64,000 nt of DNA from a virus (IMGVR_UViG_3300045988_069849:162273-226272), one strand, 5' to 3'. Positions 12 through 22,097 are shown, counted from the stretch's first letter. The notes: a model not told the origin generated them from the sequence alone. Made by a program: numbers and translations.

Positions 12-1313
12 TCAACACTAATTTCTTTTATATCATAGTTATAGTAATAAGTACCGTTCCCAAGTTTTTGGATTGTCTAAGGATAAACGTCCATTTGTAT
101 TCTATTCGGCTCTAACATAAGGTGTTATTTTAAAATTTATAGGAAATTTGTATCTAAGCAAAGAATAGTGTAATCTCCTATTCTTACTTTTAAAATAGTA
201 GGGTTTATTGTTATACATGAAATGTACTCGAAAATGATTGTCATAATCAACAACCTCTACAATGTGAATATATTTATTATAAAACTTAGATATGTTAACT
301 TCTTTTCCATTCCAGTTAGAGAATTTCAATCCAGTTAATTCCTCTACCTTTCTCAGCAAGTTCTTAGAGTTGCAAAATTTCATCCATCCAAAATAAGACC
401 TCATTCTTCTATTCAATTCATCTTTATCAATCTTATTCTATTTATATAGATTTATAAGCCTAAACATCCTCATTTTTATAGATTTTTTCAGTAGAACATG
501 AGTATGATAGAATTTATAGCCTACGAAATCAATACCTCTGCTTTCTACAGGGAATATTTGATAATTAGGCTTCAACTCTAGGTTAAGAACCTGTTTCAAA
601 TATAGTTTTATAGATACTAATACATTTCTCAAATAATTCTTGTCATTACCAAGAATCACAATATCGTCAGCATATCGAAAGTAGTACTTACATTTTAACT
701 CCTCTTTTACCCAGTGGTCAAAATATGTCAGATATAAATTTGCAAAGAATTGTGATAGATAATTTCCAATAGGAACTCCCTTCGCTGAATAAATTATTTC
801 TTTCAACAGTTTTAATAGTTTTTTATCCTTTATCTTTCTCTATAACATTTCGTATAAAATGTCGTGAGTTATAGAAGGATAGAATTTTTTTATATCCATT
901 TTCAAGCAATACTTTGTTTCTTCTGGATGTTTCTATAACACCTTAAACAAATCATACTCTACTTTATGAATACCTCTATTTCGTATAGAGGAATATGTTT
1001 GGTCTATAAATATACTAGTCCAAATAGGCTCCATAATATTCATTATAGCATGGTGAGTTATTCTATCTGGATAGTATGGAAGTCTAAAGATTAATCTTTC
1101 TTTAGGTTCGTATATTATAAAGGTACTATATTCAGAGGTTTGATAAATCAAATCCCTTAACTTATCGGATAATTCCTTATTTTCTTTTAATCTATTCTTA
1201 TCATGCTGCTTGATTCCACATCTAATAGACTTATTTCTTCTAGCTTTATCGTCAGCTAGTTCGATGTTATCTTCAGCGTATACTTTCTCGTGCAAATATC
1301 CTACACGTTTCAA
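12..1313 (-). CDS. DGR reverse transcriptase; one frame read through in-frame TAG codons at 102-104, 438-440, 840-842, 933-935 (and 18-20)
   Basis: ORF-track fragments 933..1313, 438..806 and 102..416 (-) share one frame (lower coordinate = 0 mod 3) and each ends on TAG. The fragments contain RT motifs: RLIFRLPYYPDRITHHAIM (motifs 1-2), GVPIGNYLSQ (DGR-type SQ motif), YADDIVILG (YxDD). N-terminus LHEKVYAEDNIELADDKARRNKS resembles the DGR RT N-terminus. Apparent start is TTG at 1311-1313; putative TGA stop at 12-14. Confidence 0.8.
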
Positions 1314-1450
1314 TTTTTTATATATTTCATCGGAAGCGTTCGAGAATTAACCTACTAACACCCTTCATTCAACACTACGTTATCTTTTGCCTAGAGGCAA
1401 GGATATTACTTAGCAAACTAAAAAAAAATAATAAAATGTTTCTAAATATA

Positions 1451-1556
1451 TAATAACTCGACATTGGAATTGGCATTGCTGACGTCATTGTTAGAATTGA
1501 AATAGCTGAGACCTGCATTGCTGCCATTATTCGCGTTGCTGCCTACTAGCAGTACT
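1451..1556 (-). repeat. DGR template repeat (TR), A-rich in sense orientation
   Basis: A ~105-nt segment between the RT and the target gene. It is homologous to 1656-1762 and to 29043-29140. All ~27-28 mismatches against each copy fall at adenines of this copy, read on the minus strand. Confidence 0.8.
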
Positions 1557-1630
1557 TTTTTGCCAATCAACGGTTTTTAGAAGTAATATCCTACGATTTA
1601 TCATCTAAATCGATTTTTATATTGTATATC

Positions 1631-3448
1631 TTAAGATACTCTATTCAGAGTCCTGAACCCGACAATGGAAGAGGCACCGCCGACGCCACCGTCAGAATTG
1701 AAACAGCCGAGACCCGCACCGCCGCCAACATTCGCGCCGCCGCCCACCCGCAGCGTGCGAAGCGCTGTGCTGCTTGCGTTGCAGTAATGGTAATCGCAAA
1801 TATAAGTAGTAGCACTTCCTCCAACAGCGGATGGAATTATTTCAGCGGTTTCACCTAAGTCAAATGCCTTAATATAACCATCAGATGCTACTTCGTATCC
1901 TGCAACGGTTTTCTCTCCAACTACGTCGGTAAATTCCGATACGTTAGTAGTTGTATAGACAGTGCTAATCTCATTAGCAGCTGCTCTCACTATAACTACT
2001 CCGTCCAGGTTAGTCCAAATGTCTCCAAACGGATTATCGAACCCTCTCCAGCGAGGTACTTTAAATGTATGAGTTGCTACTGTATTTGTGCCATCTTGAG
2101 CTGTACATTCTGGAATAACTAAATCTTTTACTCCAGTGAAGTTACCAAATTCATTGCAGTAACCACAAGGCGTAAGTGGATATGTTGCATTATATCCTGA
2201 CCAACTTGTAGCTGCGTTAGCCCAATCTGTAACTCCAGGTCCCAAACCCCCTTGATGATATCCATCCGCAGTTAACTCTGCATTATATGCAGCCTAAGAA
2301 TTAAAATTAGCATATTCAATGACATAATTCCAGTAGAATATCCATTTGTAATATTCATAGCATAGCAATTCTGAACCAGCATTTGTTGCATATGTTCTCA
2401 TAGTAGCTCTAGAAATATTAGTTCTAGGCTTTCCTAAATCACTTCTGAATATATCCTTAGTTTCTAATTCTGTAGTTAGATAATCATCGTAGTTAGCTCT
2501 ATTTCCTCCACCTCTAAATGCAGTAGTAGTATTAACTACTGATACAGCTTTTGGAGTTGCGGAGACTGTGGTATCAACTGTACTTCTGTATGCATCTATT
2601 AATAGTTCAGGAATTTCTACCCATGAATCATCAATTTTGACAGTAGAAGTTCTAACCCATCTTTTGTTTCCATCGCTGCCAGATTTTCCATAAAATTTAG
2701 GAGTATTAACTCTTACTGTTCCATCAGTTCCATCTAAGACAGATGGAGTTTCTCCGTCTTCTTTATAAGACCAGTCATCTGGAAACAGATAGTAATTTAC
2801 TACATCATTGTTTGCTACACAACCTCTATACGCTGATTGAATAGGAAGAGATTTATGCAGCAAAGGATTACCTATTCTAGTAAGTTCCGGAGATGCTACT
2901 GTAACATCCCATTCTACTCCATAGGAATATAAATCCATATTACTATTTAGCTCAGTAATCTACTTATCAAGCTTTTGTTGTGCCTTCTACAATTCTTCCC
3001 AAGCCTCATTTAGCGCTGTAAATTGCTCTTCTAGCTTAGAACTTGAATCTGCCCATTCAGCAGTACCATCTGCTGAGAAAACTAGCATCTATCCAGATGC
3101 TCCTCCAGATGGAATATGTTTATTTCCAGAAGTAGTTGGATGTACATAATTATTAGCATTATTAGCTATAGTACTTAACTTTTCCTTCTCAGTTTCAGTA
3201 TAATTGGCTTCAGAAAGTCCCTTTCCTAACTCCTTATCTACTTTGCCTTCAAGCTCACCCTTAGTAGCTAATTCACTAATATCCTAATGCTCAGTTAAAT
3301 ATCCACTATCATTCTGTAACTAAGAAGTTTTAGTTGGAATTGCATTAGCCTTGGCATATGTCGTATCTATAACATTTCCAGCACCATCGTAAGTAGCTTT
3401 TAAATCGTATGTGGTTTCCCCAACCTTTATAGATTTGATTGCTGCCAT
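1631..3448 (-). CDS. tail fibre / receptor-binding protein (~605 aa); DGR target with VR1 at its C-terminus; in-frame TAGs at 2294, 2960, 2987, 3089, 3284, 3320
   Basis: One frame (lower coordinate = 2 mod 3) runs from ATG 3446-3448 to TAA 1631-1633, linking ORF-track fragments 2294..2938 and 1631..2245. It contains the conserved tail-fibre motif HIPSGGASG[Q]MLVFSADGTAEWAD, in which the Gln is encoded by TAG. The C-terminal ~35 aa are encoded by the GC-rich VR. Confidence 0.7.
1656..1762 (-). repeat. DGR variable repeat VR1
   Basis: A GC-rich island in an AT-rich genome. It aligns to the TR with ~28 substitutions, all but at most one at TR adenines. It lies at the 3' end of the tail-fibre ORF. 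Confidence 0.8.
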
Positions 3449-3461
3449 ATCATTGTATTAT

Positions 3462-3662
3462 TAAAGTTTCATCAACTACATCGTGATCTATTCCCTCTAT
3501 GGAAGCAGTTAGGTCCTCAACAGCCTTCTACAATTCTGCTTTAGTAGCATAGTTCTTGAGAACTTCCTAGTCTACTCCAGAGCCTCCTCCTATACTTCCT
3601 CCAACAACTTTTACTGGTTTGGCAGAACTCTTAAACTGTCCTTCAATATAAATTGTTCCCAT
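3462..3662 (-). CDS. small late protein (~66 aa), two in-frame TAG
   Basis: Manual translation with TAG=Q gives MGTIYIEGQFKSSAKPVKVVGG... It lies directly upstream of the tail-fibre start. Confidence 0.35.
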
Positions 3663-3689
3663 ATTGTTTAAAATATTAATTGTTCATTT

Positions 3690-5506
3690 TCTCCATCTAC
3701 CTCTACACTAGAACCTGGCTATAAAGCGTCTATCTTTTTCTACAATTCGGCTACGGCCTAGCTAATTAGTTCTTCTACCTCAGCTTTGGTGTAGTATCTC
3801 TCTATAAGATATTCGCTCCTAACATATCCAGTATCTTGTAAATCTTTTTCTCCATAGGTGCAATAATAAGTATCTTCTTCAGTCTTACTATTCTCAACTA
3901 GGTCATCATAATCAGCTTGTGGTAAGCATACAAGTTTTGGTACTTCTTCAGTAATAGCAACTTGCTTGCCTCCAGCAAATAGCCTGTTATCTTCTGTGGT
4001 AAGTTTAACAGAACTCTCAATAACTTGCTCAGTTCCTGTTTCCTCAGAAGGTTCTCCAGTTGTTCCCTATTGTACTTCTTTTTCTCCAATTTTCTAAATA
4101 GTAATATCAGAAGTTTCTACTGATGTAGATTTCAAAAGCTCAGTGCTAAATTCTTTAGCAGCAGCAGCCTAATCATCCTGATATTTTTTCTAGGTAACAA
4201 ATATGAAATCATCATCTCCGGTTTCAGGAGAGTCTCCCCTTAAACTTTCTTTTGTTACGTAATCTTCGGCTATCTAATCTGATAAATCAGATAATGACTA
4301 TTGAGTAGCATAAGTAGACTGAGCATTTTCCTTAGTAAGAAATTTGTCATCAACCTGCTAAATAGTATAATAAGCCTTAATATCTTCTGTAGTAACGTAG
4401 TTTCCAAGTTTTTGCAAACCTTGAACTATTTCATCAATCTACTTCTTGGAGTAATAATTTGTAGCAACCCAGGACTGATATTGATTGGTAGTATGATAAT
4501 TCTAATCCAAATATTCCTTAGTAATATAAACCTTTGCATCATTTGTGACGTCATATACATAGTAATATGTATCAGGCTCTACCGTCCCTTCCTCTACTAA
4601 CTTTAGATACTCTTCTTCAGTTAATGTTACTAAGTTCGGAATATCCGATTCAGTAGCAATCTAATCTTCACCTATAAATAATCCTTCAGACCTAACGTCT
4701 ACTACTAGCTAGCTCTCTCCCTCTACTACAGGAGATTTTATCTATCCAACAGTGATGCTTTCTAAGGAACCATCTCCATCTACCTTAAGAGTTTTATCTA
4801 ACTCGTCTTGGATGGCCTACTAATCTTCCTCATATTCTTTCTTTGTAACGAAGACAAAATCATCTCCTTCCATTCCCTCTCCTCTAAGACTTTCTTTAGT
4901 AACGAAAATATTGTCTGTTTCTTCCTTAGTATAATACTTAGTCAGGGATAGAGCTAAAGAATCATTAGAGACATAATTAGTAGTTAATTCTTCCAGTGTA
5001 GCATAATCTGATAGGCTGGCAATAGTGTTATCTAAGTCTGTTCTAATCTATACTACAGTAGTATTAAGGGCCTTCTGTTTTAATTGCTCTTCTATCTTTT
5101 TTCCCCATTCCGCAGATAGGTAAAACTAGTCATCGTCTAAGCTATCCTCATATATATAATAATATGTCTCAGCATGAAGATACGTTTTACTTTCATCTAT
5201 GGGCCTAAAATCGTCTGTAGTATTCTCAGACCATTCTTTATATTCAGCCTCTGTACAGGTGATTATCTAGATAGATTCATAGGATGCTTTCCATCCTTCC
5301 TTGTATTTAATCTTAGACTTATCAATTAGCATATAAATATTTCCGTTATCTATGTTAGCAACGGTCATACCTTGATAAGCATACTTCTCTGGAATAGAAT
5401 AAAGTTCGTCTAAGTTATTAACGACTGTTCTATTATCGAGAGGCTTCGGAGTTTCTACGGTTAAAGCGACACCTAAGGTAGCATCACCTGTATATTTAAA
5501 TGCCAT
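3690..5506 (-). CDS. late structural gene(s) with internal tandem repeats (DDFVFVTKKEYEED / DDFIFVTQKKYQDD); TAG-interrupted; probably 1-2 genes, internal boundaries unresolved
   Basis: Start is MAFKYTGDATLGV (ORF-track 5267..5506). The track fragment 3898..4089 is in a different frame. Coding is continuous only if TAG is sense. A ~45-nt repeat unit occurs at ~4170 and ~4840. Confidence 0.3.
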
Positions 5507-5507
5507 T

Positions 5508-7080
5508 ATTGTGATAGAATAAAGTTAATTTGATGTGGCAATGCTGAGGAGTAAGTATCTTTCTTAGTCCATACCTTGTAAGTAAATCCATTTATCTACT
5601 CGGTAGACGTTTCCCAACCACTTAGGTCTACATTTAAATATCCAAGTCCCCCATCTACGGTAAATGAATTTAACTATGTGTTACTTCCTGGCAATTTTAT
5701 AATAGCCTTACCACTTAGTGAAAATGTGATAGTTCCAGACGATTGTCCAAAAGGAACTAGCGCCTATTTAATCACACTATCAGTATTACCAGAATACCAA
5801 GGATATGTGGCTACTACCTAAGCGGTAGCGGAAATAGAACCAGCTTCTACTCTCTTATCTGTAACTTCTCCTTTATTGTTTATCAAATATTCTCCAGCGG
5901 CATAACTCACTGTACCAGAGTGAGTATAAGTACCAATAGAATTATATGTATCAGACTCTACAGGAGAACTGTTATAAGTAATAGTTTCTTGTCTGTCAGT
6001 TTCTTCTCCAGCATCATTCTTTATAAATGTAAGTGTAGGAGTTAATAAAGCAGTTCCTACTTCTACTATTTGAGAAGTAAAACTATAATAAAGCTATGGG
6101 TATACTAAATCTCTAACTACTGTTGGAAATAGTAAAGTATCAATAATCTCATTAAAGGGCTTGCCCTTAAGTTTCTCTACTGTAGTCCCTTCAATTACTG
6201 TTGAAGTAGTATCATCTGGGAGTTCTGTCTAATAAGTAGCTATAGTTTCTAAGTTAGTTTGTATATTAGTAATACTTTCAGTATTAGCTTCTACTTTAGT
6301 ATTTGTCTCTTGTTGTGCTTCCTAAGTTTTCTATACTTCTTTCTTTGTTTCTTCTAGAGCAGGTTCAAGATTCTTAACATAGATACCTGGAAGGATAATA
6401 GAAGAGGTTTCCTCTCCAATCTCCTATTCTATTAAATGAATAGCATTATCTTCCTAAGTAGATAAAATCACCTCTAAAGAATTATCTTCCTTTAGTTCTA
6501 TAGTTTTGGAATTTTGGAGACTATTCTTAATCCAATTAAGAATGTTTTTATCAACATCTATATTCTCAATAGCATTATTCAACTCAACTATAGCTTCATT
6601 GATTTTTACTATTTCTTCAGATAGATTATTAATCCCTTTTCTATTAGTATCAATTTCTCGTTGTAAATCCTCCTTCAATACAGATATAGAAGTTCTAATA
6701 TTGCTTATATCGACTTTCAGTTCTTCTATTGCTTCTGTATTAGATTCATATTCACTAATAAAGTATAGGGCATAGTCTAGGGCATCCTTCACAGTATTAA
6801 TACCTTCTGCAACGTCACTAGTATAGGTCCATTTTTGTTCTATATACTATACTAGGTCTTTTTGCAGTTCTATGGTTCCACTAATGTTTCCCCACAATAG
6901 ACTCTACTCATCAGCAATACCTAAGTTCTTTCTTACTTTAGCTTTTTCTAGTTCTGTCCTATATTCTCCTAAATAGTTATTTCTTAAGAGGGGTATAGGC
7001 TCACATTTTATAGGCTTACCCTTTTTACCACAAGGCACTATATCTGCGTTACTTACCGAAGTGTAAATAGACTGTATCAT
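5508..7080 (-). CDS. late structural protein (~520 aa, coiled-coil region; fibre/baseplate-like), several in-frame TAG
   Basis: Start MIQSIYTSVSNADIVPCGKKGKP at 7078-7080. It contains ORF-track fragment 6454..6792 and continues through TAG codons to TAA near 5508. The exact frame was not verified along the full length. Confidence 0.4.
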
Positions 7081-7234
7081 TCTAGTTTAATAATTGCTAT
7101 TTAATAAATTCGTGATTATCTAGTCTTACAGGTAGGTTAATAAAACAAATTAGATTAAGAATATCTTGATAATCTGGTTTATATCCCTTTTTGAGTTTTC
7201 TTAGAAAATCCTCATACCTTTTAATAGCCTTTCT

Positions 7235-7379
7235 CTTAAGAGCATCCACAACCTATACGTTTATGTCCATGGTGGTGATTATCACAGAATCCTCCACAGG
7301 TACGGAACATCGCTAGTAATCTCTCAGCCTCCATGAATTGTTTAAAGCATATTAAATAATCTATAATGTTAAGAGTCAT
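7235..7379 (-). CDS. small Cys/His-rich protein (MTLNIIDYLICFKQFMEAERLLAMFRTCGGFCDNHHHGHKRIGCGCS)
   Basis: Manual translation of a short ORF. Too short for the ORF track. Confidence 0.3.
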
Positions 7380-7481
7380 CCATATGAAATCTCGAGCAAA
7401 TATATCTGCTTCCTAATCTCTAGTTAGACACTTATTTAGTAAAGCATCAAAGAGTTTCTTACAATAATTAATGTAACACTA

Positions 7482-7967
7482 CTACAAGTTTCCTGTAAAG
7501 AAAACATCTACCTTACATTTTTTTATAGTAGTTCCTTCTATGTTTCGTTCAAGAACTTCTTTAACTGTACACTCTTCTAGCTTACCTTCTACTTCTTTAT
7601 ATAATTTTTCTCCATCAGTAACATAGATAGTCTCATAGTATTCCTTGTATTCGTCCGATGAATTTTCATACCATTTCATATTAGGAATAATGATATGGTC
7701 TACTACGTAATAACCATCATCCTTGACCTTAAACATACACGAGTCTAAGTCTTCTGTATGGTCATTAAGTAGGACATCTATCAGAGTAGCATCACTTATA
7801 CTAACTTTGATGATAGTATTCAAGGTAGCACTCTCACTATACTTATAGGAGTCGTAAGAAGTTACTACCTCTACATCTTCATCAATATACTAGCCATATT
7901 CTTTTGAGAAATCTTCTATCAGTATTTCCCCATTAATTTGGGTATGTATATCAATACTAAATTCCAT
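7482..7967 (-). CDS. late protein (~161 aa), one in-frame TAG
   Basis: ORF-track fragment 7482..7823 extends upstream through a TAG to the start MEFSIDIHTQINGEIL. Confidence 0.45.
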
Positions 7968-7980
7968 ATTGTAATAATTA

Positions 7981-8709
7981 AGACTCAATAGGCCACTAGC
8001 CATATTGAGCAGGGGTAGAAAAAGGTTTCCATTTACCTGCTTGTCTTATTCGTCTAGACATGAAGACGGAAGTAAATGATAAACTAATATCTTGAGGATA
8101 ATCTGTCCAGATATAAGAATATCCATCTGGGGTCGGAGGTAGTTTATCTAGTCCAGAAGAAGGCTGACCATTCCAATAGTAGTTATAGTCATATGCCTTT
8201 AGAGAAGTAACTTCTGTAGTTTCTTTCCCTTCAGCATCTATATACAGCGGATTTCCGTCCTCATCTGTTTTCTATTTATATTCTATAACTGGTGTTATTC
8301 CCTCGGTTCTAGTATATATAGTCTATATAATAGTAGAGACATCACTCGCTACTATTTCATAGATAGTAGTTCCCTATGATTCATCAGCTCCCTAAAAAGT
8401 AAATTTAGTTCTTTTCCATATATACGGATTCTCTTCTGTTGGAAGCTCAAAAGTATCAGACCACTACTTACTTGATAATTTTATTTCAGATTCATCGGCA
8501 GTATTAGCAGGGAGATAATGTATTTTAATAATAATACTATTAACTGCTTCACTTGAACCGGATAAATCTGATACCTACTTAAATAATTTTTTTAGGTCGT
8601 CTTCTACATTTGATTTAGAACCGGAAGCATTACTTATAATTACTGTCCCATCAGAGATAGGATAAATCTACTGCTAATCTTTGTTGTATACAATTGTTCC
8701 AGTTGCCAT
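7981..8709 (-). CDS. late structural protein (~240 aa), multiple in-frame TAG
   Basis: Manual translation MATGTIVYNKD[Q]QIYPISDGT... It starts directly after the portal stop. Confidence 0.4.
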
Positions 8710-8710
8710 A

Positions 8711-10882
8711 TTAATGTATTTGTCTTATTTTGTCATTATATGGATTTCCATCATGAAGCTAAGCCAACTCTATTTCAGTTCTTTTTTCTTCAATATCCAT
8801 TTGTCTATCTTTATAAGTAGAATCAGACTGAGCTTTAAGCCAGTTAACTTTATATTCTAACTGCATCTTCTACTATTCTAATCCTAGTCTCTATTCATCT
8901 AAGCTTTCAATCTTTTGCTGAGCTTTCTATAATTCTTGCTATAACTACTGAGCCTATTGAGAAGTTTCTTCTAATTTTTCTTGTAGTTGCTGAAGCTGAT
9001 TATTTTCCTCTTTGCGAACTTGAACAGCTTTCTTAACCTTATATTTAAGGTCTGTCAGACTCTTAGATGTAAGAGCCTCAAAAATAATATCTGGGTCCAT
9101 CTGTTGACTTTTTACGAACTCTGGAATGATTGCTTTTATAGTCTATAGATCTTCCATCACTTCTGAACTAGCAGTAATATGAATATCGTAGTCAGTAACA
9201 GTAAAATACTCAGGAAGTGCGGTGAATATCTGTTGATATTTATCCCCAAGTATAATAGTTCCAGTTAATCCTTTCTTATAAGTAACTTTAGCCTAATTAA
9301 GACTATCTAGTAGTATCTCGCAGGTTATTAAATCCATCTGCTAAAAATAGTGCTTAGTTACTATATACGAGTTAGCTACTCCCTACTTAATATTAGTAAC
9401 TGCATCTCTAGTTTCTATACCGTTAAGTCGTTCCCTAAATACTCCAGTTATTGATGATGTAGTTTGTTCTACTGATTGAATAGCTAATTCAATAGCCTAT
9501 ACAGCCTATGCTTTTAAGGTATCATCAAATCCGTTATATATCTAGTTTGGAGCTTGCTGTCCATCATTCCTACCTTCTTGGCTTGAGTCTATCCACATGA
9601 TACCACCTTTTTTATAGGCTAACCATTTTTGTACTCGTTCTGGCCATTTAACTCCTAAGTTGGTAGGCAACAGAGACATATCCATAATAACTCCGGCAGT
9701 ACCACTATTAGCTATTAGATTATCTCTATAATAGTTTAATAAGTCGTATCTATCCTACAGATGTGCACATTTTAATATAAGAGAATAAGGCTACTAAGAG
9801 CGATTTAAGAAATATACTCCATTTACCGATAAAGAACAGAAGTTGGGATTATCTTTAGATCTCATAACAGTCTTGTCTAATCCTCTAAGAATATATATCT
9901 CTTCTCCTATTCTAATAGTATTGTATCTCTACATCACAAAATCATCATCTGTTTCAATCCATTCAACATCATAGACTGGGATTAACTAGAACCTATGAGC
10001 ACTATATTCATTGTCTGGATAGCCGGGAATGGTTTCATGATTCTAATCTTCATTTACTACTGTACAAGTATCTCCATATACTCTTCTATAAACAGCAGCT
10101 GAATCATCAGCTCGCCATTCATCTTTTAGTCTTCTTAAATCTTCTCTAGATATTTCTTTGCCATATTTAGCTAAAATCTAACTCTTACTCATCCACTTTC
10201 TTACTACAACTCTATATGAGTTCCTTACATATGGAGATTCTGGATTTCTATCAACAAATGTATTAAGTGGGTTTAATACCTCTATTTCAATATTAGTTCC
10301 AGAAGCCGATGATTTCACTCTAAAGAATGTATAACCAGTAATTAATAGGTCTGTTAGTAACTAACGTAACTTAGTAATTAAATCGGTTTCTCTGGATTGC
10401 ATAATATAATGTACTATATTCTAAGCTGCAATTTCATATTGAGAAATAAAGGATTGGTCAATATCCTATATAATTTTATCTAACTAAGTCTTTACAGCTT
10501 TATCAGTAATATCCTTGCCATCAATAAACTTAAGAATTGAATTACTTAAATGGTCTTTCAAAAACTTTACTATTCCCTTGGTTATTTCTAGCTATTTTTC
10601 TCTTGTTATATTACTGATAGTATCTGAATCTTTGCAAGAAATTTTCGGAAGTATAGGAGTTCCTAAATATTCTCCAACTAGAGCATCTACGTGTTTCTTT
10701 AATAAAGGCGTAAACTCTACCGAAGTGGGGCTACCTATTCCGAAGTTTTCTTCCAGATAACGGAACTATTCAGGATCTCTTTTACCATTATAATAATTAT
10801 AAGCTTTCTGTAACTCATACTTATCATATACAAGTTCCGCAATAGCCTCGTTTGTCTTGTCTATCAATTCCTTCTCTTTCAT
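8711..10882 (-). CDS. putative portal protein (~724 aa) with a Q-rich C-terminal coiled coil; about 25 in-frame TAG
   Basis: A single frame runs from ATG 10880-10882 (MKEKELIDRTNEAIAELVYDKYELQKAYNYYNGKRDPE...) to TAA 8711-8713 when TAG=Q. It sits immediately downstream of terL and its size is portal-like. No motif-level proof. Confidence 0.45.
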
Positions 10883-11102
10883 AACATAAATTATGTTGTT
10901 CTGGAGGAAGTTTAGTAGCGTTATAATACTTAACTCTTTGTAACTTCCTACTTCTTAATTCTTCCTTAATAAATGGCAGAAATTCTTCGTCTGGTAAATC
11001 TGCTATTATTACTAATGGCATTTCTGACCTATCAAAGTTAAAAGAGACTTTATACCCAACTGGGTCTAAACTCTCAATATCTAGTCCGCCTATATACTCC
11101 AT
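10824..11102 (-). CDS. possible small ORF in an alternative frame, spanning the terL/portal junction
   Basis: ORF-track 10824..11285 is an uninterrupted 153 codons. It overlaps the terL 3' end and the portal 5' end in a third frame. Only the part downstream of the terL stop could be an independent gene. Confidence 0.2.
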   Translation of the reverse strand: MEYIGGLDIESLDPVGYKVSFNFDRSEMPLVIIADLPDEEFLPFIKEELRSRKLQRVKYYNATKLPPEQHNLCYEREGIDRQDKRGYCGTCI

Positions 11103-13437
11103 TTTGTACAAGTCCCTCATATATTCTAGGATCACTTGTTTCAACTCTGTATGGGTCATCATATTCGTTTCTTTGCATATTAAGTTCAGGAGTTTTCTTA
11201 GTTGGAATAACTCCAAATCTTTTAATTCCTCTCTCGTCGTAATAGTAACCAAAATCTTGGAACTATTCAACTTCTTTCTCCACAAGTACGGGCTGTCTTC
11301 CTGATAGCTCTTGGTCTGCCAACTCAGTCATACCTACAGCGGCTACAATATCATACTTACCCTTATTTTCATCATTATATGCAGTAAACTATTCTAGCAT
11401 TTCTTCGAACCATATAGTATGGCAATAGTCTTCTATAAAGGCGGCTGTTAAATCAGTATGCTATTCAATTATAGTTTTTGTAGCAGGAGTTCCATACTAT
11501 TTAGTAGTTCCATTTCTGACATCAGTTAGAGTAGCTCTTGGGCGCTTCATAAAATAGTTAAGGCATCCTTTTTCTCTAGCCCAAGTAACCATACCCATAC
11601 GAGTAGCTTCTATATTTATTTTACAATTATAATAGCGAGCTAAACACATAGCTATTTTATAGGCTTCTCTGATGTCTCCAGGTCTATCCTTGTACATAGC
11701 AACATACTGAGGGTCATTCATACCAAACGCACGTTTCTTAATCGTTATGCAGAAATCAGACGGATCTCTGGTTTCCTTAGAAGTCTAATTCGCTCCAATA
11801 TCAATACCGTCTATACCTGCTACGTATAAGTCTCGCATCTCTTTATAAACTGGAACTTCAAAATCCTAGCCATTATTTTCTGCTTCCTATCTAAGCTTTT
11901 CCATTTGTTCTTTATATAAGTCAGACCATATTGGATGCTCTAGAATTTTTACTTTACCATTGCTATTAGGAATCCATTTAAAGCCATCAATGTTATCCTA
12001 AGTATGTTTATTATTTTTGTAAAAATAATCAATATAACCACATTCGGGTCTTGGACCAATTTGTTTAAGTCTTATATTAGCTATCTATTCGGCAACTAAA
12101 ATTTTATTAAATTTATTAACACCTTCTAGATTAAATGCTTCTTCTGCATTCCAACAACGTTCAGCACATTTCTTTAGGTAGTCTTCTGGTACAGCTAACA
12201 GATTATCTCGCTCCTCCTATAAGAATTTCTTATATTCTACAGTATTACACACTCCTCTGTGGTCCATAAATTCTGGATTCAAAGATTGTATAAAGTATGG
12301 AATAAAGAATCCACTCTCTATAGTAGTCCCATCCTAAGTCCAATTATGTCTAAATGGAAGAATCTTATATGCTCTTGGATTATAGTAAATCTTTTTTAAG
12401 CCCTCTAGAGGAGCACCCATATCACCGCCAGTACCTCCAAACAACATTGTTCCACGAGGCATACCTTGAACTTCACAAAGTTCTTGACCTTGTACCACAG
12501 CGGTATCAAGTCCAGGCCAGGAACCAGCTTCATCATATATTAATAAATCTACACGGTCTCCACGAATGTTAGATGGTTTAGCTCCGTTAATTGCTACAAC
12601 CTCAGATTTAAATCCTACGTCTTCAAACTAACCATTTATTTTGATTTGTTTACCTGATTTCTTTCTCAAATCCTGGTCAATAAGTCGCAATTTAAAAAAT
12701 CCTCCTCCAGTACAGGTATTTAAGAATGTAAGAGCATTGTCAAACTTACTAAAGGTACCCTTAAGGAAGGTATCATTAAAGCAAGTAATCATAACCCTAC
12801 TTCTTCTAATAACAGAGTACATACGAGCAGAAAGAGAGGCGTTTATTTCAGAGAATCCAATAGAACGAGCTTTCATTAAAGCTGCGTGCTTGTGTAGCAC
12901 TCTAGCCATCTATAGATAATGAAAGAACATATAATGTGATGCAAAGAATATTGGGAAGTCATTATCAGTACCCTCACCAGAGGCTTTCTACTAGTCAATA
13001 GTAGGTAACTAATAGAAATTTAAGAAGAAGTAATTATCTCCAGTAATGGTGTATCCATTAACTGTCATTCCATACTTACATCTTCTATATTGCTCTTTCC
13101 AAAATTCGTTGTACCGCTTACTATCTCTAAGGTAGGGACAGTATTGACCAGTTCGTTTATATACTTCCCTAGTCTCGGTAAACCAATCTGGATTAAAGTC
13201 CAATCCATGAGTTTCGTCAATAGGTCTGTATCCAGTTATTTCATAAGATAAGGTAGGGTCAAATACTTCTATTTTATCTCCTATTTTAACATCCCAATAG
13301 TCAGAATTTCTGACCCTTTCCTCTCTTATTTTCTATACTAATTCTCTAGCTTCTTTAGCATCCTCTTTCTATTCTTTTTCTCTTACCTAATCTACAATAT
13401 TCTATATTTCTTCAGGTAATATCTTTTTTCTTGGCAT
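11074..13437 (-). CDS. terL: terminase large subunit (788 codons incl. stop), ~10 in-frame TAG
   Basis: One frame (lower coordinate = 1 mod 3) runs from ATG 13435-13437 to TGA 11074-11076, joining ORF-track fragments 13009..13203, 12628..12909 and 11497..11721. It contains the Walker B-like LLIYDEAG and an FGGTGGDMG motif. TAG codons sit in sensible positions, e.g. EEI[Q]NIVD[Q]VREKE[Q]KEDAKEARELV[Q]KIREE. Confidence 0.8.
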
Positions 13438-13439
13438 AA

Positions 13440-14006
13440 TTAAAAGTCTCCTGGGTCAAAACCATCCACAGCTCCAGCTCTAACAGTAGATTGTTCAGTA
13501 AGTTCTTTCTTAACCTAGTCTTCTAGTGTTATGAGTTCTTCATGAACTTTGTGAAGGGTAGCCATTTCCTTCATTACTTTTTCAGCCTGGAATACTGGTT
13601 TGCCGTTATTATCACGCTCATTTAAATCTACAATAGTTTCGAAATAATCAATAAACTAGTCTGCAGCTCTTTTAGCTGCTTCTAGTAATTTTATTGACTT
13701 GTTTGAATCTTGTAACGCTCTGTATTTCCTACAAGCTTCTCTAAATATAGGGTCATTAAATTCTGACTCTGTCAATCCAGAATCACTAATAGCTTCGTCA
13801 TGTCGTTCATGTTCCGAATACTAACTGTACGGACTTTTCCAGTCTATAGCTAAATAAATGTAAGATAGTTCTCTAGTAGCTCTATCCTTTTCTGCAGATT
13901 TATCCCTCTAGATTAAAGCCTTAAATTCCTTAACTAGCAATATCTCTGGTTCATTTATTTCTAGCTATTTAGTTAAAGTGTTATAGTTAAATACATTCAT
14001 AATCAT
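13440..14006 (-). CDS. putative terminase small subunit (~188 aa), 5 in-frame TAG
   Basis: Lies immediately upstream of terL. Manual translation MIMNVFNYNTLTK[Q]LEINEPEILLVKEFKALI[Q]RDKSAEKD... The assignment is positional only. Confidence 0.4.
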
Positions 14007-14037
14007 TAATCATTATCATACACATTAGATAATCTTA

Positions 14038-14616
14038 TTATTTCTTTTTCATTTTGGAACCGCACTTATTGACTTTCATTTTGGAACCACAAGCGTCTTT
14101 CTTAGCATATTGTTTTCTGTCAGGAACCCATTTTCCTCCCTGGAAATTACCCTTATGTCCCTTATTGGCCATAGTTTCCTAATCATTGTATTTATTGATT
14201 GATATAGAATCTCTTGAGGCTTCGTCTCTAGCAGATTTCATATCTTTCTTATACTAAGCTCTTCCAGCCTTAAATTTATCAACTTCATTAGCTTTCTTAG
14301 TAACTTTAGTTCCTTTTTGTGCTTTCTGGCAAGCTTTACAGATTCTACCGCCTTGCTTAAAATATACAAGCTCTTCTCCTTCTGGACATACTCCTTTTAG
14401 CTTCTTATAATACTCAAGCTTAGCTCCAAGCCTAGCCATTACTCCTCCTTGCATTTTCTGCATAAATTCCTGATACTTAGCTTTAATGCCGTCTTCTCCT
14501 AATTGTTCAGCATAAGCTTGTAAATCCTATTCAGATTGTACTTGTATTCCCTACGCAGCGGCATCTTGTATTAGATATGCCATAAATGCTTTTTGTAATT
14601 CTTCCTAGTTAGCCAT
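14038..14616 (-). CDS. basic Cys-rich protein (~192 aa), 3 in-frame TAG
   Basis: ORF-track 14254..14463 ends on TAG and continues. Start MANWEELQKAF at ~14616. The C-terminus ...CGSKMKKK ends at TAA 14038-14040. Confidence 0.4.
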
Positions 14617-14826
14617 TACTCTTCTACTTTAATTAAATCCTTAGTATTAAACACTGCTTCCTACATAAGTCCGGAATCAGTAAACCATCTACATCTTAAT
14701 CCTCGTAATCCTTGGTTATCTTTAAATAAAGCTGCTTCTCTTCTTAGAACAAGCATAACTGGAGAATGCATTACTTTACACTACCGTAAAGTAACACAAT
14801 CCCCAGGCTTAAAATAAACTTTTTCA

Positions 14827-15429
14827 TCAATTGTTTCCATACTTCAATTCGTTTCTTCTTTCAGTTAGCTTTTCGTTAACTACAGCCATAATTCTGTTCT
14901 CATTAACTACAACAAATCCAAACTTGTAGAACGGAACCATGCACTCGCTAGCTATTGTATAGAATACTATATCTCCAGGTTTTAGGAACTCACACTTGTG
15001 CCCAACCTCAATAACAGTACCCACTTTAATAAATTGTTGTTCTTCTTCTATTTCTCCTGTTTCATTAGATTTATATGTTGGAGCAAACCCACCTAAGTCT
15101 GTAATTAATCCACTCTTAGTAGTTTTAATTTTTTGAAACGGATTTTGTTCGAAAGGTTTAATTAATGCATACCCATACATAGGCATAATTTCTACACCAT
15201 TCATATCCTCAGATAATGATTTGGCGTAAGATTCTAAAGCTGCATTATGTTTAGAGAATTTATCTTCTAATTCATCTACTGCTGTATTGAATCTTTCCTG
15301 TTTTTCTCTTAATAAAGTTTTATCTGCAGCTTCTCCATTTACTATAAGGTGCTGTCCTGTACCTTCCATACCAGTTATAGCTAGTGCTAGTTTCTCATTA
15401 CTGTTCAATTCTGTTCTTAAAGTTTCCAT
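14827..15429 (-). CDS. hypothetical protein (200 aa), standard code
   Basis: Intact ORF in the track with a TGA stop. Confidence 0.6.
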   Translation of the reverse strand: METLRTELNSNEKLALAITGMEGTGQHLIVNGEAADKTLLREKQERFNTAVDELEDKFSKHNAALESYAKSLSEDMNGVEIMPMYGYALIKPFEQNPFQKIKTTKSGLITDLGGFAPTYKSNETGEIEEEQQFIKVGTVIEVGHKCEFLKPGDIVFYTIASECMVPFYKFGFVVVNENRIMAVVNEKLTERRNELKYGNN

Positions 15430-17001: not shown

Positions 17002-17345
17002 ATGTCTAATATGACAAAAATGGTAACATTTGGATGTCCAATTTTTAAAAACGGGTCAGGCATTCATATTAAAGAGAAAAACAAAGGTAAATTTACTGCC
17101 TCTGCTAAGGCTGCAGGATAGTCTGTACAGGAACATGCTAAATCTGTACTAAACAATCCTAATGCTACTCCTCTTCAGAAGAAGCGTGCTAACTTTGCTA
17201 GAAACGCGGCTAAATGGAAACACGAAGATGGAGCTAAGATACATAAACCAAGTGGACATAGATCTATTCTAGATAATGGATGGATTCCTACTACTAGATT
17301 AAAGAAAGGAAATTATGGATTAATTAAAACAAGAAAGCAATGAAC
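17002..17345 (+). CDS. small basic protein with one in-frame TAG (plus strand)
   Basis: Manual translation MSNMTKMVTFGCPIFKNGSGIHIKEKNKGKFTASAKAAG[Q]SVQEHAKS...KTRKQ. Confidence 0.4.
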
Positions 17346-17418
17346 GCTGTAGTTAAATTAATTAAAGAATTTATACTTAAGATATATCTTTATTTACTAT
17401 TTATATTTAATAAGTAAT

Positions 17419-17610
17419 ATGGACTATAATAGAGCAACTCTTTATGCGGCTACTGGTCGTACTTTATTACTCCCTGGCTGGAAAGGGTATTTTTATTGGG
17501 ACTATACTAAGAATGAATTAAATTTTAGAAATGGAGACTATCATTTAGATAACAAATAGCTCAAGGAGAAAGGAGTTATGGAACGTAATGATTGGTATTA
17601 TATAATATGA
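17419..17610 (+). CDS. small protein with one in-frame TAG
   Basis: Manual translation MDYNRATLYAATGRTLLLPGWKGYFYWDYTKNELNFRNGDYHLDNK[Q]LKEKGVMERNDWYYII. Confidence 0.3.
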
Positions 17611-18043
17611 TAATTAAAAATAATATTATACCGTTTGGAGGTTATAAAGTAATTAATCTGTTTGGATTAATATTTACTAAGTCGGATTTGACTGATGAGG
17701 ATAAGAATCACGAGAATATCCATTCAGTATAGATTTTAGAATGTGCAATAGCGTTTGCAATACTTATATCTATATTATTTGGATTAGAATGGGTATGGTT
17801 AGCTATTCCATCTTTCTATATCTGGTATGGATTAGAGTATTTAATTATACGACTATTAAGACTTAAAGATTCTCAAAATGATTGCTACAGAGATGTAAGC
17901 TTTGAAGAAGAAGCTTATATGAATGAAGACAATTTACAGTATCTAGAAGGATAGAGAAAGATGTTTTCATGGATAAAATATCTAAAAGTTAATGCATAAC
18001 AAAATAGGCGAACTTAGACAATTAAGTCTAGGCTCGCCTATTT

Positions 18044-18601
18044 TTATTTACTATTATACGTACAAGTGATTCTGTTTGGCTCTTCCCACCAAGGTTTATC
18101 TGAAAGTGGAGTTCTGATGCTATTGGGCCAATTTATAATTGGAGTAGTTTCCTCTACTATAGCCTCCATTATTTTAAATAATGTATCCAAGTCTAGCTCT
18201 GGAAGCAGCTCATGAATATTAGTTATTGTTTTCTTATAATTTATCATACCTTCAAAAGTGTCGTTAATAATTGCTTTCTCTATTGTAGTATCTTTATATA
18301 AACCATGTTGTAGTATATTTCTTACTTGATGGTCTATTTGATTCCATATATCTAATAATATAGAAGAATCATCTGAAAGACTATATTGTGGATAGCTAGC
18401 CCTTAAACTGCTAAGTACTTTGCCATTAATGTAAATGTCAAATACGAAATTTTTTATATCATCTGTAGTTTCTCCAGAAATTCCTGCAGCTCTTTGTAAA
18501 AGTTTAAGAGCCTTTTCATATACTTCTCTTTCTTCACGTTCTCTTCTTGAAGAATTAAACATCATCATATTTGCGGCTACTGACATATTAGTACGATACA
18601 C
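18044..18601 (-). CDS. hypothetical protein (185 aa)
   Basis: ORF track. Confidence 0.5.
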   Translation of the reverse strand: MYRTNMSVAANMMMFNSSRREREEREVYEKALKLLQRAAGISGETTDDIKNFVFDIYINGKVLSSLRASYPQYSLSDDSSILLDIWNQIDHQVRNILQHGLYKDTTIEKAIINDTFEGMINYKKTITNIHELLPELDLDTLFKIMEAIVEETTPIINWPNSIRTPLSDKPWWEEPNRITCTYNSK

Positions 18602-18750
18602 TTAGCTTATTTAAGTTGTCTAGATAATCTAAGAACCATTGTTCGTTTTGTTTTCCTTCTTCTACAATAGTATTAATTAAAGATTCTGTAGCTAATAGTG
18701 TTATTTCTGCTAGTTCCTCTAATTCCGATTTAGTAAGTTCGTTATATTTT

Positions 18751-19065
18751 TCAATCAAGTTTAACATAATCCATCCAGTCTTTTATATATGATTTACATT
18801 CTTCCAAATCTGGATAGATACTTGTTATAGAGCATCCAGTTTTCGGATTTTTAAAGTGGTGCATCTTAGCCTCTTCTTTTTTCTCCTCTTCTGTATTTCT
18901 ATTTAATGTTCTATTCCAATAGTTGTACTTTTCATCTAACATTTCCATATCACATTCCTCTAATATTTTCATATTAGGGTTATTCATTATCTTGTCGTAC
19001 TTTCTCTTTAAATTAGAGACTTTGACAACATCATTTCCATTTAATACAACTGCACACTGTTTCAT
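18751..19065 (-). CDS. hypothetical protein (104 aa)
   Basis: ORF track. Confidence 0.5.
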   Translation of the reverse strand: MKQCAVVLNGNDVVKVSNLKRKYDKIMNNPNMKILEECDMEMLDEKYNYWNRTLNRNTEEEKKEEAKMHHFKNPKTGCSITSIYPDLEECKSYIKDWMDYVKLD

Positions 19066-19292
19066 TTCAATACCTTATAAGTACATATCTTGCCTATCTG
19101 TTTTCCTTGAATTGTTATTTGCGGAAGAAAATAGCAGGCTTGATTCTCAAATTCTTGAGGTACAAAGATATAATCAAACTTACTTCCAACTACCTTCTCA
19201 CAAACTTTATTCCAATCGTCTCCCTCTTCTATAATAAGAGTTTTAGCTCCTGTTGGAGTTACTACATAATTCTCATTTAATTTTATCATAAC
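19062..19292 (-). CDS. hypothetical protein (trimmed; the track ORF N-terminus is the tRNA)
   Basis: ORF track 19062..19364. The first ~24 residues overlap the suppressor tRNA. The likely real start is MIKLNENYVV. Confidence 0.35.
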   Translation of the reverse strand, partial: VMIKLNENYVVTPTGAKTLIIEEGDDWNKVCEKVVGSKFDYIFVPQEFENQACYFLPQITIQGKQIGKICTYKVLK

Positions 19293-19306
19293 TATTAATT
19301 TTGGCG

Positions 19307-19378
19307 TTGCCCTACTAGGATTCGAACCCAGACTAAATGATTTAGAGTCATCTGTGCTGACCATTACACCATAGGGCA
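19307..19378 (-). tRNA. amber suppressor tRNA, anticodon CUA (reads UAG), tRNA-Gln-derived
   Basis: Cloverleaf: acceptor tgcccta/tagggca, D-arm gtgt-aatggtca-gcac, anticodon stem gatga/tcatt with loop CUCUAAA (positions 34-36 = CUA), variable tagt, T-arm ctggg-ttcgaat-cctag, discriminator A. D-arm and T-arm are nearly identical to tRNA-Gln(UUG) at 34205-34276. Confidence 0.8.
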
Positions 19379-19383
19379 GTAAC

Positions 19384-19918
19384 TTATTTCTCTTTTAGAG
19401 ATTTATTTTCTGCTGCCAATTTCTCTAGTTCTTTTCTTAATTGTTCATTTTCGTGAAATAAAGCCTGCATAGTAGCGTTGATACTAGCTAATAGTATTCT
19501 CATTTGAGCAACCTATTCATACATAAGCTTTCAGTTGTTCAATTCTCTTTTTAGCTATATCTGACAATGCCATTTTGAATTTAGCAATACCAGCTCTTAC
19601 TGTTTCTAACTTGCCGCTTTCTAAGCATTCTTGTATTTTATGAACTTCAAGCTCTCCTAGATATTCGCATACATCTATAAATAAATCATCATCTAGAGAT
19701 TCTAAATATTTCTGGAATTGGTCTACCTCTTCATTAGCTAGACAGCTTTCTTCCTTCTATCTTTCATAAGATATTAATAAGAACAAAGAATCGTCGGTAG
19801 ATTCGGACTTAATAGTTAGCCCATTACCAGACATATAATATTCTTGATTCGTATTAATTGCCTCAACTAGCTATTTAAACTAGTCCTAATTTAACAATGT
19901 TTCTAAGTCTGTAATCAT
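19384..19918 (-). CDS. TAG-containing gene upstream of the suppressor tRNA (possible regulator; ~177 aa)
   Basis: Manual translation MITDLETLLN[Q]D[Q]FK[Q]LVEAINTNQEYYMSGNGLTIKSES...; at least 8 in-frame TAG. The frame was not verified end to end. Confidence 0.35.
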
Positions 19919-20236
19919 AATTGTTTTCTTTTTAGTTATATACAACAATAACCTCCGAAAAGTTAAACGCAAAGTTAAAAAATTCTAATTCAAATATTAT
20001 ACATATTTTATATATTAAGGGGAAAGCCGGTACAGGTACTTTATATAAATAGCCCCCTGGGGTTATTATAAATTCCGACTTTTATATTTGGAGGGCAATT
20101 ACCTAGATTCCAAAAATTCATAGAGTGAGTGTAGTGGCGGTCCACAACCCCTTTAGTCCCCCCCTGTATATTGATATAAAACTAAAACAAAAACAAAAAT
20201 CAATTTCCAGTATTAACATTTTAAAATTTTAAGATT

Positions 20237-20683
20237 ATGACACTCGAAGAATTGAAAGACCAGAACGTAAGCGCAGTAGAAAGAGCTAAGGCAGTAGTAT
20301 CAGCATTGGGACTGAAAGGTGGTGAACGCTCAGTTGTTGTCGGCTTGTCAAAGGGCGATAAGTTTAAGTTGGTAGCAATGAACAAGGTAGATTTGCCTGC
20401 AAATGCCAACCAACCAAACCAAAGCAACTTTACACCGATTACATTTAGCACTGACACAGGTGCAACCATTGGTGCAAAACACTTTGCGGGCGTAGAAATC
20501 GACGACGATGCTCCGGCAATCGGTTCAACTCCGTTGGAAAATGCCGCTTTCCTTGTTTATTGCATTGACCACAATGTAACATTTAAGGTAGACAAAAAGG
20601 TAACGGAAGACATCGAAGCTACCACTGACCGCCAAGCCTACAAGAAAAATACTTACAAGCTGGTAGTGGAAGACTATGATTAA
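20237..20683 (+). CDS. hypothetical protein (148 aa), GC-richer than its flanks
   Basis: ORF track. Confidence 0.55.
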   Translation: MTLEELKDQNVSAVERAKAVVSALGLKGGERSVVVGLSKGDKFKLVAMNKVDLPANANQPNQSNFTPITFSTDTGATIGAKHFAGVEIDDDAPAIGSTPLENAAFLVYCIDHNVTFKVDKKVTEDIEATTDRQAYKKNTYKLVVEDYD

Positions 20684-21666
20684 AAGATTGGGGAGAAATC
20701 CCCTTTCTTTTACATACAAATAATCTTTGTAGAAATGGACATAAGAAAAAAGTTTAAGACTATAAAGTGTTTGTATAATTGGGGCATAATCTATGACCCA
20801 AAGACTAATGAAAAGTTAAATTTCAAATCCAAACGTGTTTATTGCGTAACTTCTTGGGCTTGGATTATGACCTATCAAAAGTCAGAAGAAGATATTCCTG
20901 AGATAATTAGGATACTCTTTGTAGATTAACTCTAAGGTACTATGAGTTTTAAATAAAGTGCCCACATGAACCCCATCATCGGAACGTTGGTTAACGGGGA
21001 AAACAACATCACAACAAATCAAATCAAAGTTTTTGTTTAGTTTTAGGATTGTATCTGGCAGCTTGGAAAGACAAGCAAAATCTTTATACCTATCTGCTAA
21101 TAGGTTTAGTGTTCAACGCGAAAATTCGGTAAAGGAAGGAGAGAAATTGTCCACTAAAAAGACCCTCAATTTCCGGACTTTTTCCGATTTTCAAAAAATC
21201 CGCCAGAGTAGGAGTTATATAGCTCACACTCTCTATAGACATTATTTAGTATTTAGCCTATAAAAAGGCAACAAAAAGCGAGGCTACGCAGAAGAGCCTA
21301 ACACCAAAAATAACTGCTACAAATTCTATGTGCATATTCGCAAACTTGAGCACTATAGGATTTAGGTTGAGCTGTAAGGATTGGTCACTTATAGCAATAT
21401 TATGAGTACTGCTGATATGTCAGTGACCGTACATATCACATATAAAATATGTTATACAATTATGTTAGAAGTTGCCAGGTCTAAGAAGCCTGATTAAAAT
21501 CTCTAGATAGTAAGAGAGAACCTCATAAGGGTTCATTTTCCATCTCGAATCTATTCGCAAGTTTTGAGATTAGCTACCTCAGAATTTAGTGAACGTTGAT
21601 AACGTTGTATGTCTGGAAAACATACTAAATAATCTCCTATCTTATACTAGTTGTCAAGATAGGATT

Positions 21667-21737
21667 TCCCCATTAGTATAATGCTATTGCGCCTTCCTCT
21701 AAAGAAGGAGATTCTGGTTCGAGTCCAGAATGGGGAA
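21667..21737 (+). tRNA. tRNA-like with anticodon CUA (second candidate amber suppressor), non-canonical D-arm
   Basis: Acceptor tccccat/atgggga (U1-A72), anticodon stem ccttc/gaagg with loop CUCUAAA, variable agat, T-arm tctgg-ttcgagt-ccaga, discriminator A. The D-arm lacks G18G19 and pairs weakly. Confidence 0.4.
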
Positions 21738-22097
21738 CTTGGTATTTGAGGACTACAACTACTTGTAGACTCTGTTGCAGTTAAAGATTATAATGGGTAC
21801 GCCCTGAGACTAATGCAGAGCATCTCTTATGAATAGAGGTGTCTTATCGTGAGATAAGGCAAAGTATTGTGAGATTGAGAGAATTACTAGCTAAAATGTT
21901 AGAAGAAGACCCAGATTCAAGTAGCAATATCTACAAAGAAATATGGGGAGCTTATACTGCTGGGATGAACTCCTTGCTCGAGTAGCAACAATTCCAAGCT
22001 TGGTGAATTAAAACTAGCTAACCTAATTACTCTTTATAAGGTTGAGAATGTAAAAAGAGAATTGGAATGGTAAGCCCATCTCCCTTCGTCCTTTGCT

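Follow-up and report, generated by a model that had tools for sequence, protein, structure and literature searches.

The window analysed here, the whole stretch of 64,000 nucleotides of viral DNA, encodes on its minus strand a genuine phage tRNA with the anticodon CUA, an amber suppressor of the tRNA-Gln type that is called supA in what follows. As judged from sequence comparison, this tRNA is very probably functional, belongs to the Gln family and lets the TAG-rich late structural genes of the phage be translated. Its isotype signature and its closest relatives agree on the assignment to a phage-encoded amber suppressor of the tRNA-Gln type, which a preliminary description of the same DNA had already proposed. 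A second tRNA(CUA), supB, is encoded on the plus strand, and the features under discussion are listed in Table 1.

Table 1. Position of the suppressor tRNA genes, their neighbours and the TAG-recoded genes in the window
Feature	Position	Strand	Description
TAG-recoded late module	39..14840	(-)	RT, tail proteins, portal, TerL and others; 117 in-frame TAGs
Reverse transcriptase (RT)	39-1043	(-)	PHROG 1423, 2.1e-88; 4 in-frame TAGs; end of the tail-gene block
Portal	8711-10882	(-)	PHROG 9.1e-42; 28 TAGs
TerL	11074-13437	(-)	PHROG 6.2e-60; 20 TAGs
75-aa ORF	19062..19289	(-)	Starts 17 nt after supA; ATG at 19289
supA	19307..19378	(-)	tRNA(CUA), Gln-type amber suppressor; U1 at 19378, discriminator A73 at 19307
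Small coiled-coil ORF	19384..19524	(-)	Stop 5 nt before position 1 of supA; gene call of 46 aa in the 99%-identical relative
TAG-containing ORF	19517..19918	(-)	133 aa, 4 in-frame TAGs; first gene of the supA operon
RAGATH-14 structured RNA	21467..21638	(+)	Rfam RF03145, 184.6 bits vs gathering 149.1; 28 nt upstream of supB
supB	21667..21738	(+)	Second tRNA(CUA); ARAGORN; Rfam 56.5 bits; absent from the preliminary description
Phage tRNA-Gln(UUG)	34205..34276	(+)	ARAGORN; Rfam 66.3 bits; closest paralogue of supA in the window
Genes ending in TAG, then TAA/TGA 2-8 codons on	22154-22657, 24492-24671, 42469-43059, 44863-45555, 45994-46446	(+)

Affiliation of the phage

By tblastn, the TerL protein of the phage is most similar to those of crAss-like phages, and relatives of the phage sit on contigs of 175-195 kb, the window showing about a third of the genome. 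With its low GC content and the 29 tRNA genes (ARAGORN) and one tmRNA encoded in the window, the phage matches the Zeta group that Yutin et al. distinguished among crAss-like phages (PMC7886860), with genomes of 145-192 kb, an assignment made by size and features. A megablast search of positions 17000-24000 against GenBank phages returned no close relative and only two short conserved elements.

Several further structured RNAs were observed in the window. A tmRNA lies at 43323-43887 (+) with an Rfam score of 62.1 bits against a gathering score of 47, and without an ARAGORN call; it carries a 273-nt insertion in the pseudoknot region, and its tag frame, read by eye, is ATYSEVRMAA with the stop UAA. 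This tmRNA might rescue ribosomes running through UAG stops. A further tRNA without an ARAGORN call is found at 41365-41437 (+) (Rfam, 39.5 bits), and ARAGORN calls an unusual tRNA-Tyr with the anticodon AUA at 39354-39436 (+). A type I hammerhead core of textbook form (AUCCU-CUGAUGA-stem II-GAAA-stem III-GUC/AGGAU) occupies 23758-23816 (+) and overlaps the TGA stop of the ORF 23173-23766; its Rfam score is below threshold (RAGATH-1-hammerhead, 29.7 vs 56.3 bits), and positions 23756-23793 share 97% identity with crAss-like phages cr131_1 and cr272_1. Lastly, an intergenic stretch of about 50 nt at 23015-23067 (+) is 96-100% identical in many otherwise unrelated crAss-like phages, including cr115_1, cr113_1, cr53_1 and cr118_1, has no Rfam match, and is possibly a conserved regulatory or RNA element.

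Structure and conservation of supA

The minus-strand cloverleaf of 72 nucleotides proposed in the preliminary description was borne out by ARAGORN, which calls a tRNA at 19306-19378 (-) with the anticodon cta at position 34, and by the Rfam tRNA model RF00005, which matches 19307-19378 (-) over its full length with 66.3 bits (E=3.2e-12), a score equal to that of the phage tRNA-Gln(UUG). ARAGORN leaves the anticodon register unchanged, and its isotype label, 'tRNA-Pyl', merely mirrors the anticodon. In the sequence of supA, UGCCCUA-UG-GUGU-AAUGGUCA-GCAC-A-GAUGA-CUCUAAA-UCAUU-UAGU-CUGGG-UUCGAAU-CCUAG-UAGGGCA-A, the anticodon loop reads directly as C32-U33-C34-U35-A36-A37-A38, with CUA at positions 34-36 of the 7-nt loop, as had been stated; the D-arm, T-arm, U1-A72 pair and length of 72 nt quoted at the same time are all correct on inspection.

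The tRNA has the makeup of a canonical elongator, with a 7-bp acceptor, a 4-bp D stem, a 5-bp anticodon stem, a 5-bp T stem, U33 and a purine at position 37 of the 7-nt anticodon loop, and the nucleotides of the tertiary interactions, namely U8, A14, G18G19 (the GG in AAUGGUCA), the T-loop UUCGAAU (T54-Psi55-C56) and G53-C61. CCA is encoded neither by the supA gene nor by any of the 18 window tRNAs checked. A minimum free energy fold of the single sequence did not return a cloverleaf; that result is uninformative and is superseded by covariation and by the RNAalifold consensus.

Four relatives whose TerL proteins are 73-99% identical to that of the window each have a supA orthologue at the corresponding position, in the same orientation and 5.9-9.6 kb upstream of TerL. 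A wider set came from a pattern scan of IMG/VR that returned 72 contigs, mostly of 100-190 kb, in 70 of which ARAGORN calls a CUA tRNA, 27 of these being identical to the supA of the window. Among the 18 distinct variants of 73 nt, standard pairing is seen in 99.5% of cells and two-sided changes in 13 of the 21 pairs, values reached by none of 500 shuffles. When the register is slid, pairing among these variants falls to 43-53%, while all 21 pairs are supported in the true register, and the consensus structure obtained independently with RNAalifold is the cloverleaf. In the IMG/VR set the search pattern itself demanded an invariant D-arm and anticodon loop (CUA), whose constancy there carries no evidential weight; the supA-type copies recovered from the four relatives and from IMG/VR all read CUA, which in IMG/VR was required by that pattern. 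The 1:72 pair is U-A in 10 variants, U.G in 7 and U.U in one, never a strong pair, and A73 is invariant. supA is a canonical cloverleaf under purifying selection, and its position is kept in relatives.

Some of the supA-type tRNA(CUA) genes in IMG/VR (89-91 nt) have an insertion of about 18 nt that gives a long variable arm and otherwise keep the Gln-type D-arm and U1. A few IMG/VR variants encode CCA, with G or U at position 72.

Genomic context of supA

The supA gene sits in a small leftward operon (~19918 to 18044), with four TAG-free genes after it. The orthologue of the first gene, 19517-19918, precedes supA in the four relatives with a TAG count of 4, 2 or 0, and on this count the idea that the ORF is a conserved autoregulatory device was rejected. 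An ORF at 19062..19364 that overlaps supA had been regarded as spurious in the preliminary description; this holds for its N-terminal 25 codons, but the ORF is called from the ATG at 19289 in a 99%-identical relative, whose gene 2511-2738 maps to 19289-19062.

The same description placed supA at the upstream end of the TAG-rich block, which is true only loosely. The supA operon is a separate one, and between it and the recoded block, which begins near 14840, lie three plus-strand genes (17002-17999) followed by minus-strand genes (14827-16887) that are mostly TAG-free, with one TAG in four genes. Nor is a simple order of tRNA first and TAG genes after it seen, the TAG-containing ORF 19517-19918 being upstream of supA.

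Scans of the surroundings gave negative results. A sigma-70 promoter scan of 18900-22100 found 13 sites against 12.1 expected and is uninformative, as these phages and their hosts use other promoter types. A permissive Rfam scan for ribozymes, including HDV-like and theta ribozymes, found none flanking supA or supB. RF1, RF2, GlnRS and CCA-adding enzyme are all absent from Pfam scans of the 20 largest plus-strand ORFs, and no release factor, RF1 antagonist or aaRS was found in the window, about a third of the genome.

A second CUA tRNA and the RAGATH-14 RNA

The second tRNA(CUA), supB, also has U1-A72 and A73, and its D-arm is non-canonical or degenerate (3 bp and U.U, with a D-loop without GG). 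In its covariation analysis 96.7% of cells are paired, and 10 of the 21 pairs show two-sided changes. Orthologues of supB occur in 13 relatives, where the anticodon is CUA, UUA (ochre) or CUG, the normal Gln anticodon, and the anticodon loop has 6 nt or 8 nt in two of them; the contig IMGVR_UViG_3300045988_066445 carries an identical supB. A supB-type tRNA follows the RAGATH-14 RNA in all 15 Zeta-size viral contigs from IMG/VR and in none of six other viral contigs, in which no tRNA lies within 330 nt downstream of the motif. In the open-access literature, no paper naming the RAGATH-14 motif was found.

These observations bear on which of the two tRNAs decodes TAG. That supB, and not supA, is the principal TAG decoder of the late genes, or that both share this role with supA as an auxiliary, is unlikely. 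supB does share the CUA anticodon, U1-A72, A73 and a covarying cloverleaf with supA, it is kept together with RAGATH-14 in the 15 Zeta-size contigs, and the orthologue that reads CUG points to a Gln identity. Nevertheless, its anticodon and loop length are not fixed among relatives, its D-arm is degenerate, its tRNA score is lower (56.5 vs 66.3 bits), and every contig in which both tRNAs are visible keeps a supA that reads CUA. In our reading, supA is the constant amber suppressor, and supB accompanies it as a variable member of the Gln family. A bolder proposal, which we also consider improbable, is that recoding depends on a two-tRNA system in which supB would be the regulated or evolvable part and RAGATH-14 a cis-acting processing or timing element gating the release of the supB tRNA.

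TAG in the late genes

The TAG-rich minus-strand late block named in the preliminary description was recovered and contains 117 in-frame TAGs, and its genes, including TerL and portal, are intact only when TAG is read as sense; a tail protein of the module matches PHROG with an E value of 1.9e-82. TAG makes up 51% of the Gln-type codons in this block (117/231), against 12% in plus-strand ORFs, and in-frame TAG positions are common to the window and its relatives. The RT is probably part of a diversity-generating retroelement, of the kind reported in Zeta crAss-like phages. ORF coverage was rejected as evidence of recoding: taking TAG as sense raises it from 59% to 85%, but it likewise reaches 85% with TAA as sense, and being non-discriminating it was set aside in favour of homology-backed genes. 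The 3'-neighbour context of in-frame TAG shows no bias relative to that of CAA/CAG (chi-square p=0.52).

Most plus-strand genes have no internal TAG. In several of these non-late genes TAG seems to be a true stop with a backup, to judge from the TAA or TGA that follows within a few codons (Table 1).

The suppressor could also be mainly offensive, with read-through of host UAG stops crippling host (defence) proteins and the decoding of phage TAGs being secondary; such a role has been proposed (PMC7886860 and PMC12386605), and we judge it quite unlikely to be the main one here. Some Zeta phages retain a tRNA(CUA) without any recoding (PMC12386605), and the phage tmRNA could rescue ribosomes stalled after read-through, but the phage cannot do without suppression, given 117 in-frame TAGs in its essential genes (TerL, portal, tail), and this need is enough to explain why the tRNA is retained.

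The amino acid inserted at TAG

In the alignments with relatives, the sense codons opposite TAG are CAA/CAG in 36% of cases for TerL and 44% for portal, followed by GAA and AAA; among residues, E and K rank second and third. A likelihood test on 188 TAG-versus-sense observations finds Gln best, ahead of Glu by 82 log units with BLOSUM62-derived values and by 223 with the alignments' own profiles; the frequency of Q is 45% opposite TAG and 55% opposite true Gln codons. The reading of TAG as Gln in the late genes is thus upheld by a non-circular codon alignment in which Gln is best by more than 80 log-likelihood units. Residue counts at the TAG columns of database homologues (61% Q for TerL, 88% for portal) were rejected as circular, since those proteins were themselves predicted with TAG=Q, and the codon-level tests were used instead.

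The tRNA itself points in the same direction. Within the window, supA is most similar to tRNA-Gln(UUG) (78% identity), the next isotype being at 69%. On Bacteroidota-titled contigs its D-arm motif, UGGUGUAAUGGUNAGCAC, is confined to tRNA-Gln (22 of 22 calls), and the Bacteroidota tRNA-Gln genes with the motif start with U1 and end with A72-A73, as do supA and the phage tRNA-Gln(UUG). As a general Gln marker the motif had to be rejected, being valid only within that phylum and found mostly in tRNA-His outside it: among the matches listed in cellular genomes there are at least 75 tRNA-His vs at least 33 tRNA-Gln, and the motif-bearing tRNA-His among them come from CPR, SAR11 and archaea and have G1-C72 and C73. 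A Prevotella tRNA-Gln(CUG) has U1-A72, G2-C71, C3-G70 and A73 in common with supA. The discriminator A73 is common to supA, the phage tRNA-Gln(UUG) and at least 17 U1-starting cellular tRNA-Gln genes, most of them on Bacteroidota-titled contigs, and G10 is present in supA, as is typical of tRNA-Gln.

In E. coli, the identity elements of GlnRS are U1-A72, G2-C71, G3-C70, G10, G73, U35, G36, A37 and U38. Of this set supA has U1-A72, G2-C71, G10, U35 and A37 and lacks G3-C70, G73, G36 and U38; its 3:70 pair is C-G, and C2-G71 is seen in 8 of the 18 members of the supA family. The full anticodon set U35, G36, A37, U38 is not present, positions 36 and 38 both being A, although the loss of G36 is unavoidable in a CUA suppressor and is tolerated by E. 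coli supE. The E. coli rules may not transfer to this system, as the tRNA-Gln of Bacteroidales and of the phage likewise have A73.

A tRNA-Pyl is recognized by a 6-bp anticodon stem, a 3-nt variable loop, a tiny D-loop without G18G19 and a single acceptor-D linker base, along with pylS/pylBCD genes in the vicinity. It is highly improbable that supA carries a residue other than Gln (e.g. Glu, Lys or Trp) or is a pyrrolysine tRNA. The 'tRNA-Pyl' label of ARAGORN and the ranks of E and K opposite TAG could be quoted for this, but Gln beats Glu by the margin given above, and the E/K pattern is what the substitution of Gln normally looks like. The tRNA-Pyl traits are absent from supA, which has two acceptor-D linker bases, G18G19, an 8-nt D-loop, the T-loop UUCGAAU, five base pairs in the anticodon stem and a variable loop of 4 nt. 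The ORFs scanned contained no pyl genes, and proteomics of crAss-like phages found Gln at TAG (PMC9523058).

Ancestry of supA

The GenBank phage tRNAs nearest to supA, at 80-86% identity, come from crAss-like phages of another family and bear the annotation 'tRNA-Gln'; matches in mycobacteriophages also occur, and the anticodons inspected are those of crAss-like matches. Those of cr60_1, cr7_1 and MT836720 all have the anticodon CUA and an acceptor strand, UGCCCUA, identical to that of supA, and supA is 83-86% identical to these CUA tRNAs of other Crassvirales families. Being closer to them than to the tRNA-Gln(UUG) of its own phage (78%), supA belongs to an old CUA suppressor lineage, found widely in Crassvirales, that already carries the annotation tRNA-Gln. 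The derivation from tRNA-Gln advanced in the preliminary description holds at the level of the family, and tRNA-Gln(UUG) is indeed the nearest gene in the window, but to name it as the donor is too specific, the Crassvirales CUA tRNAs being nearer still. supA is not a one-step mutant of any window tRNA, and 73 nt are too few to resolve a specific donor.

Among 121 cellular matches listed for the D-arm motif, a single CUA tRNA was observed, 82% identical to supA, on CAMJMP010000002.1, a 78-kb contig of a 'Tenericutes' MAG; this is probably a phage contig binned into the MAG.

Proposed mechanism

The gaps of 5 nt and 17 nt to same-strand ORFs, together with the lack of an encoded CCA, suggest that supA would be transcribed inside a polycistronic message, freed from it by RNase P and 3' processing, and completed post-transcriptionally with CCA by a CCA-adding enzyme. 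Charging with Gln would be carried out by the GlnRS of the host (Bacteroidales), since supA keeps the tRNA-Gln signature of the clade in its acceptor and D-arm (a weak U1:A72, G2-C71, A73 and G10) as well as U35. A36-A37-A38 is the classical MiaA substrate motif of tRNAs reading U-starting codons, and in supA it may likewise favour such codons. Abundant supA would then outcompete the host RF1 at UAG, yielding full-length TerL, portal and tail proteins, and plus-strand genes that end in TAG with a backup TAA or TGA would tolerate both decoding states. This scheme is the published code-15 'late gene' recoding. The late switch suggested in the preliminary description is plausible, as a published model rather than something demonstrated by the window.

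Relation to known systems

Work by Ivanova in 2014 is reportedly among the published accounts of TAG recoding in gut phages. Suppressor tRNAs and the reassignment of TAG to Gln in the late genes of crAss-like phages, the Zeta group among them, were described by Yutin in 2021 (PMC7886860), a regulatory or temporal-switch model and the hypothesis of charging by host GlnRS were put forward by Borges in 2021/22 (10.1101/2021.08.26.457843), and proteomic proof that TAG is Gln in crAss-like phages was given by Peters in 2022 (PMC9523058). The code-15 Beta, Delta and Zeta crAss-like phages and Lak phages resemble the phage of the window in low GC, in a tRNA(CUA), in TAGs concentrated in structural genes and in other genes compatible with the standard code, and nothing essential differs; the phage of the window has two CUA tRNAs, and no 'code-change module' of RF2 and aaRS is found in the window.

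The closest individual matches are two RefSeq 'tRNA-Gln' genes with the anticodon CUA, that of cr60_1 (NC_055891.1:24176-24250), with a D-arm identical to that of supA, and that of cr7_1 (NC_055895.1:9123-9194), with a near-identical one. Like supA, the tRNAs of cr60_1, cr7_1 and MT836720 have the anticodon loop CUCUAA, the variable loop UAGU and a similar T-arm, and in cr60_1 and MT836720 the tRNA is also upstream of TerL. These phages differ in belonging to the Suoliviridae, with genomes of ~100 kb and TerL proteins ~27% identical to that of the window, and their tRNAs differ at position 72 or 73 (U or A); that of cr60_1 encodes CCA, unlike supA.

The supE suppressors of E. coli (glnV/glnX) also have a tRNA-Gln body with CUA and share U1-A72, G2-C71, G10, U35 and A37 with supA, whereas E. 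coli tRNA-Gln has G3-C70, G73 and U38 where supA has C3-G70, A73 and A38. In E. coli supE, GlnRS charges the tRNA-Gln with the CUA anticodon and Gln is inserted at UAG. Unlike supE, supA is encoded by a phage, for which its use is obligatory.

The suppressors associated with theta (HDV-like) ribozymes (PMC10879173) resemble those of the window in having no encoded CCA and in belonging to recoded phages, which infect Bacteroidota. A structured RNA adjoins the suppressor in those systems, as RAGATH-14 adjoins supB here; however, RAGATH-14 lies 5' of supB and not at its 3' end, it is not a known ribozyme, and neither window tRNA has an HDV-like or theta ribozyme.

Significance

The supA system is already known: the phenomenon is published, public viral collections contain identical tRNAs, and RefSeq has annotated genes that are nearly identical. 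Recoding of TAG to Gln in late genes by a phage suppressor tRNA has already been established by comparative genomics and metaproteomics, with charging by host GlnRS being probable. For annotation the finding has practical value, as TerL, portal and tail genes fragment under the standard code and ARAGORN mislabels the tRNA as 'Pyl'. Only the pairing of a constant supA with a variable supB and the link between RAGATH-14 and supB are mildly new. If a RAGATH-14 gate on supB proved true, it would give an orphan motif its first function and the phage a physical 'code switch'.
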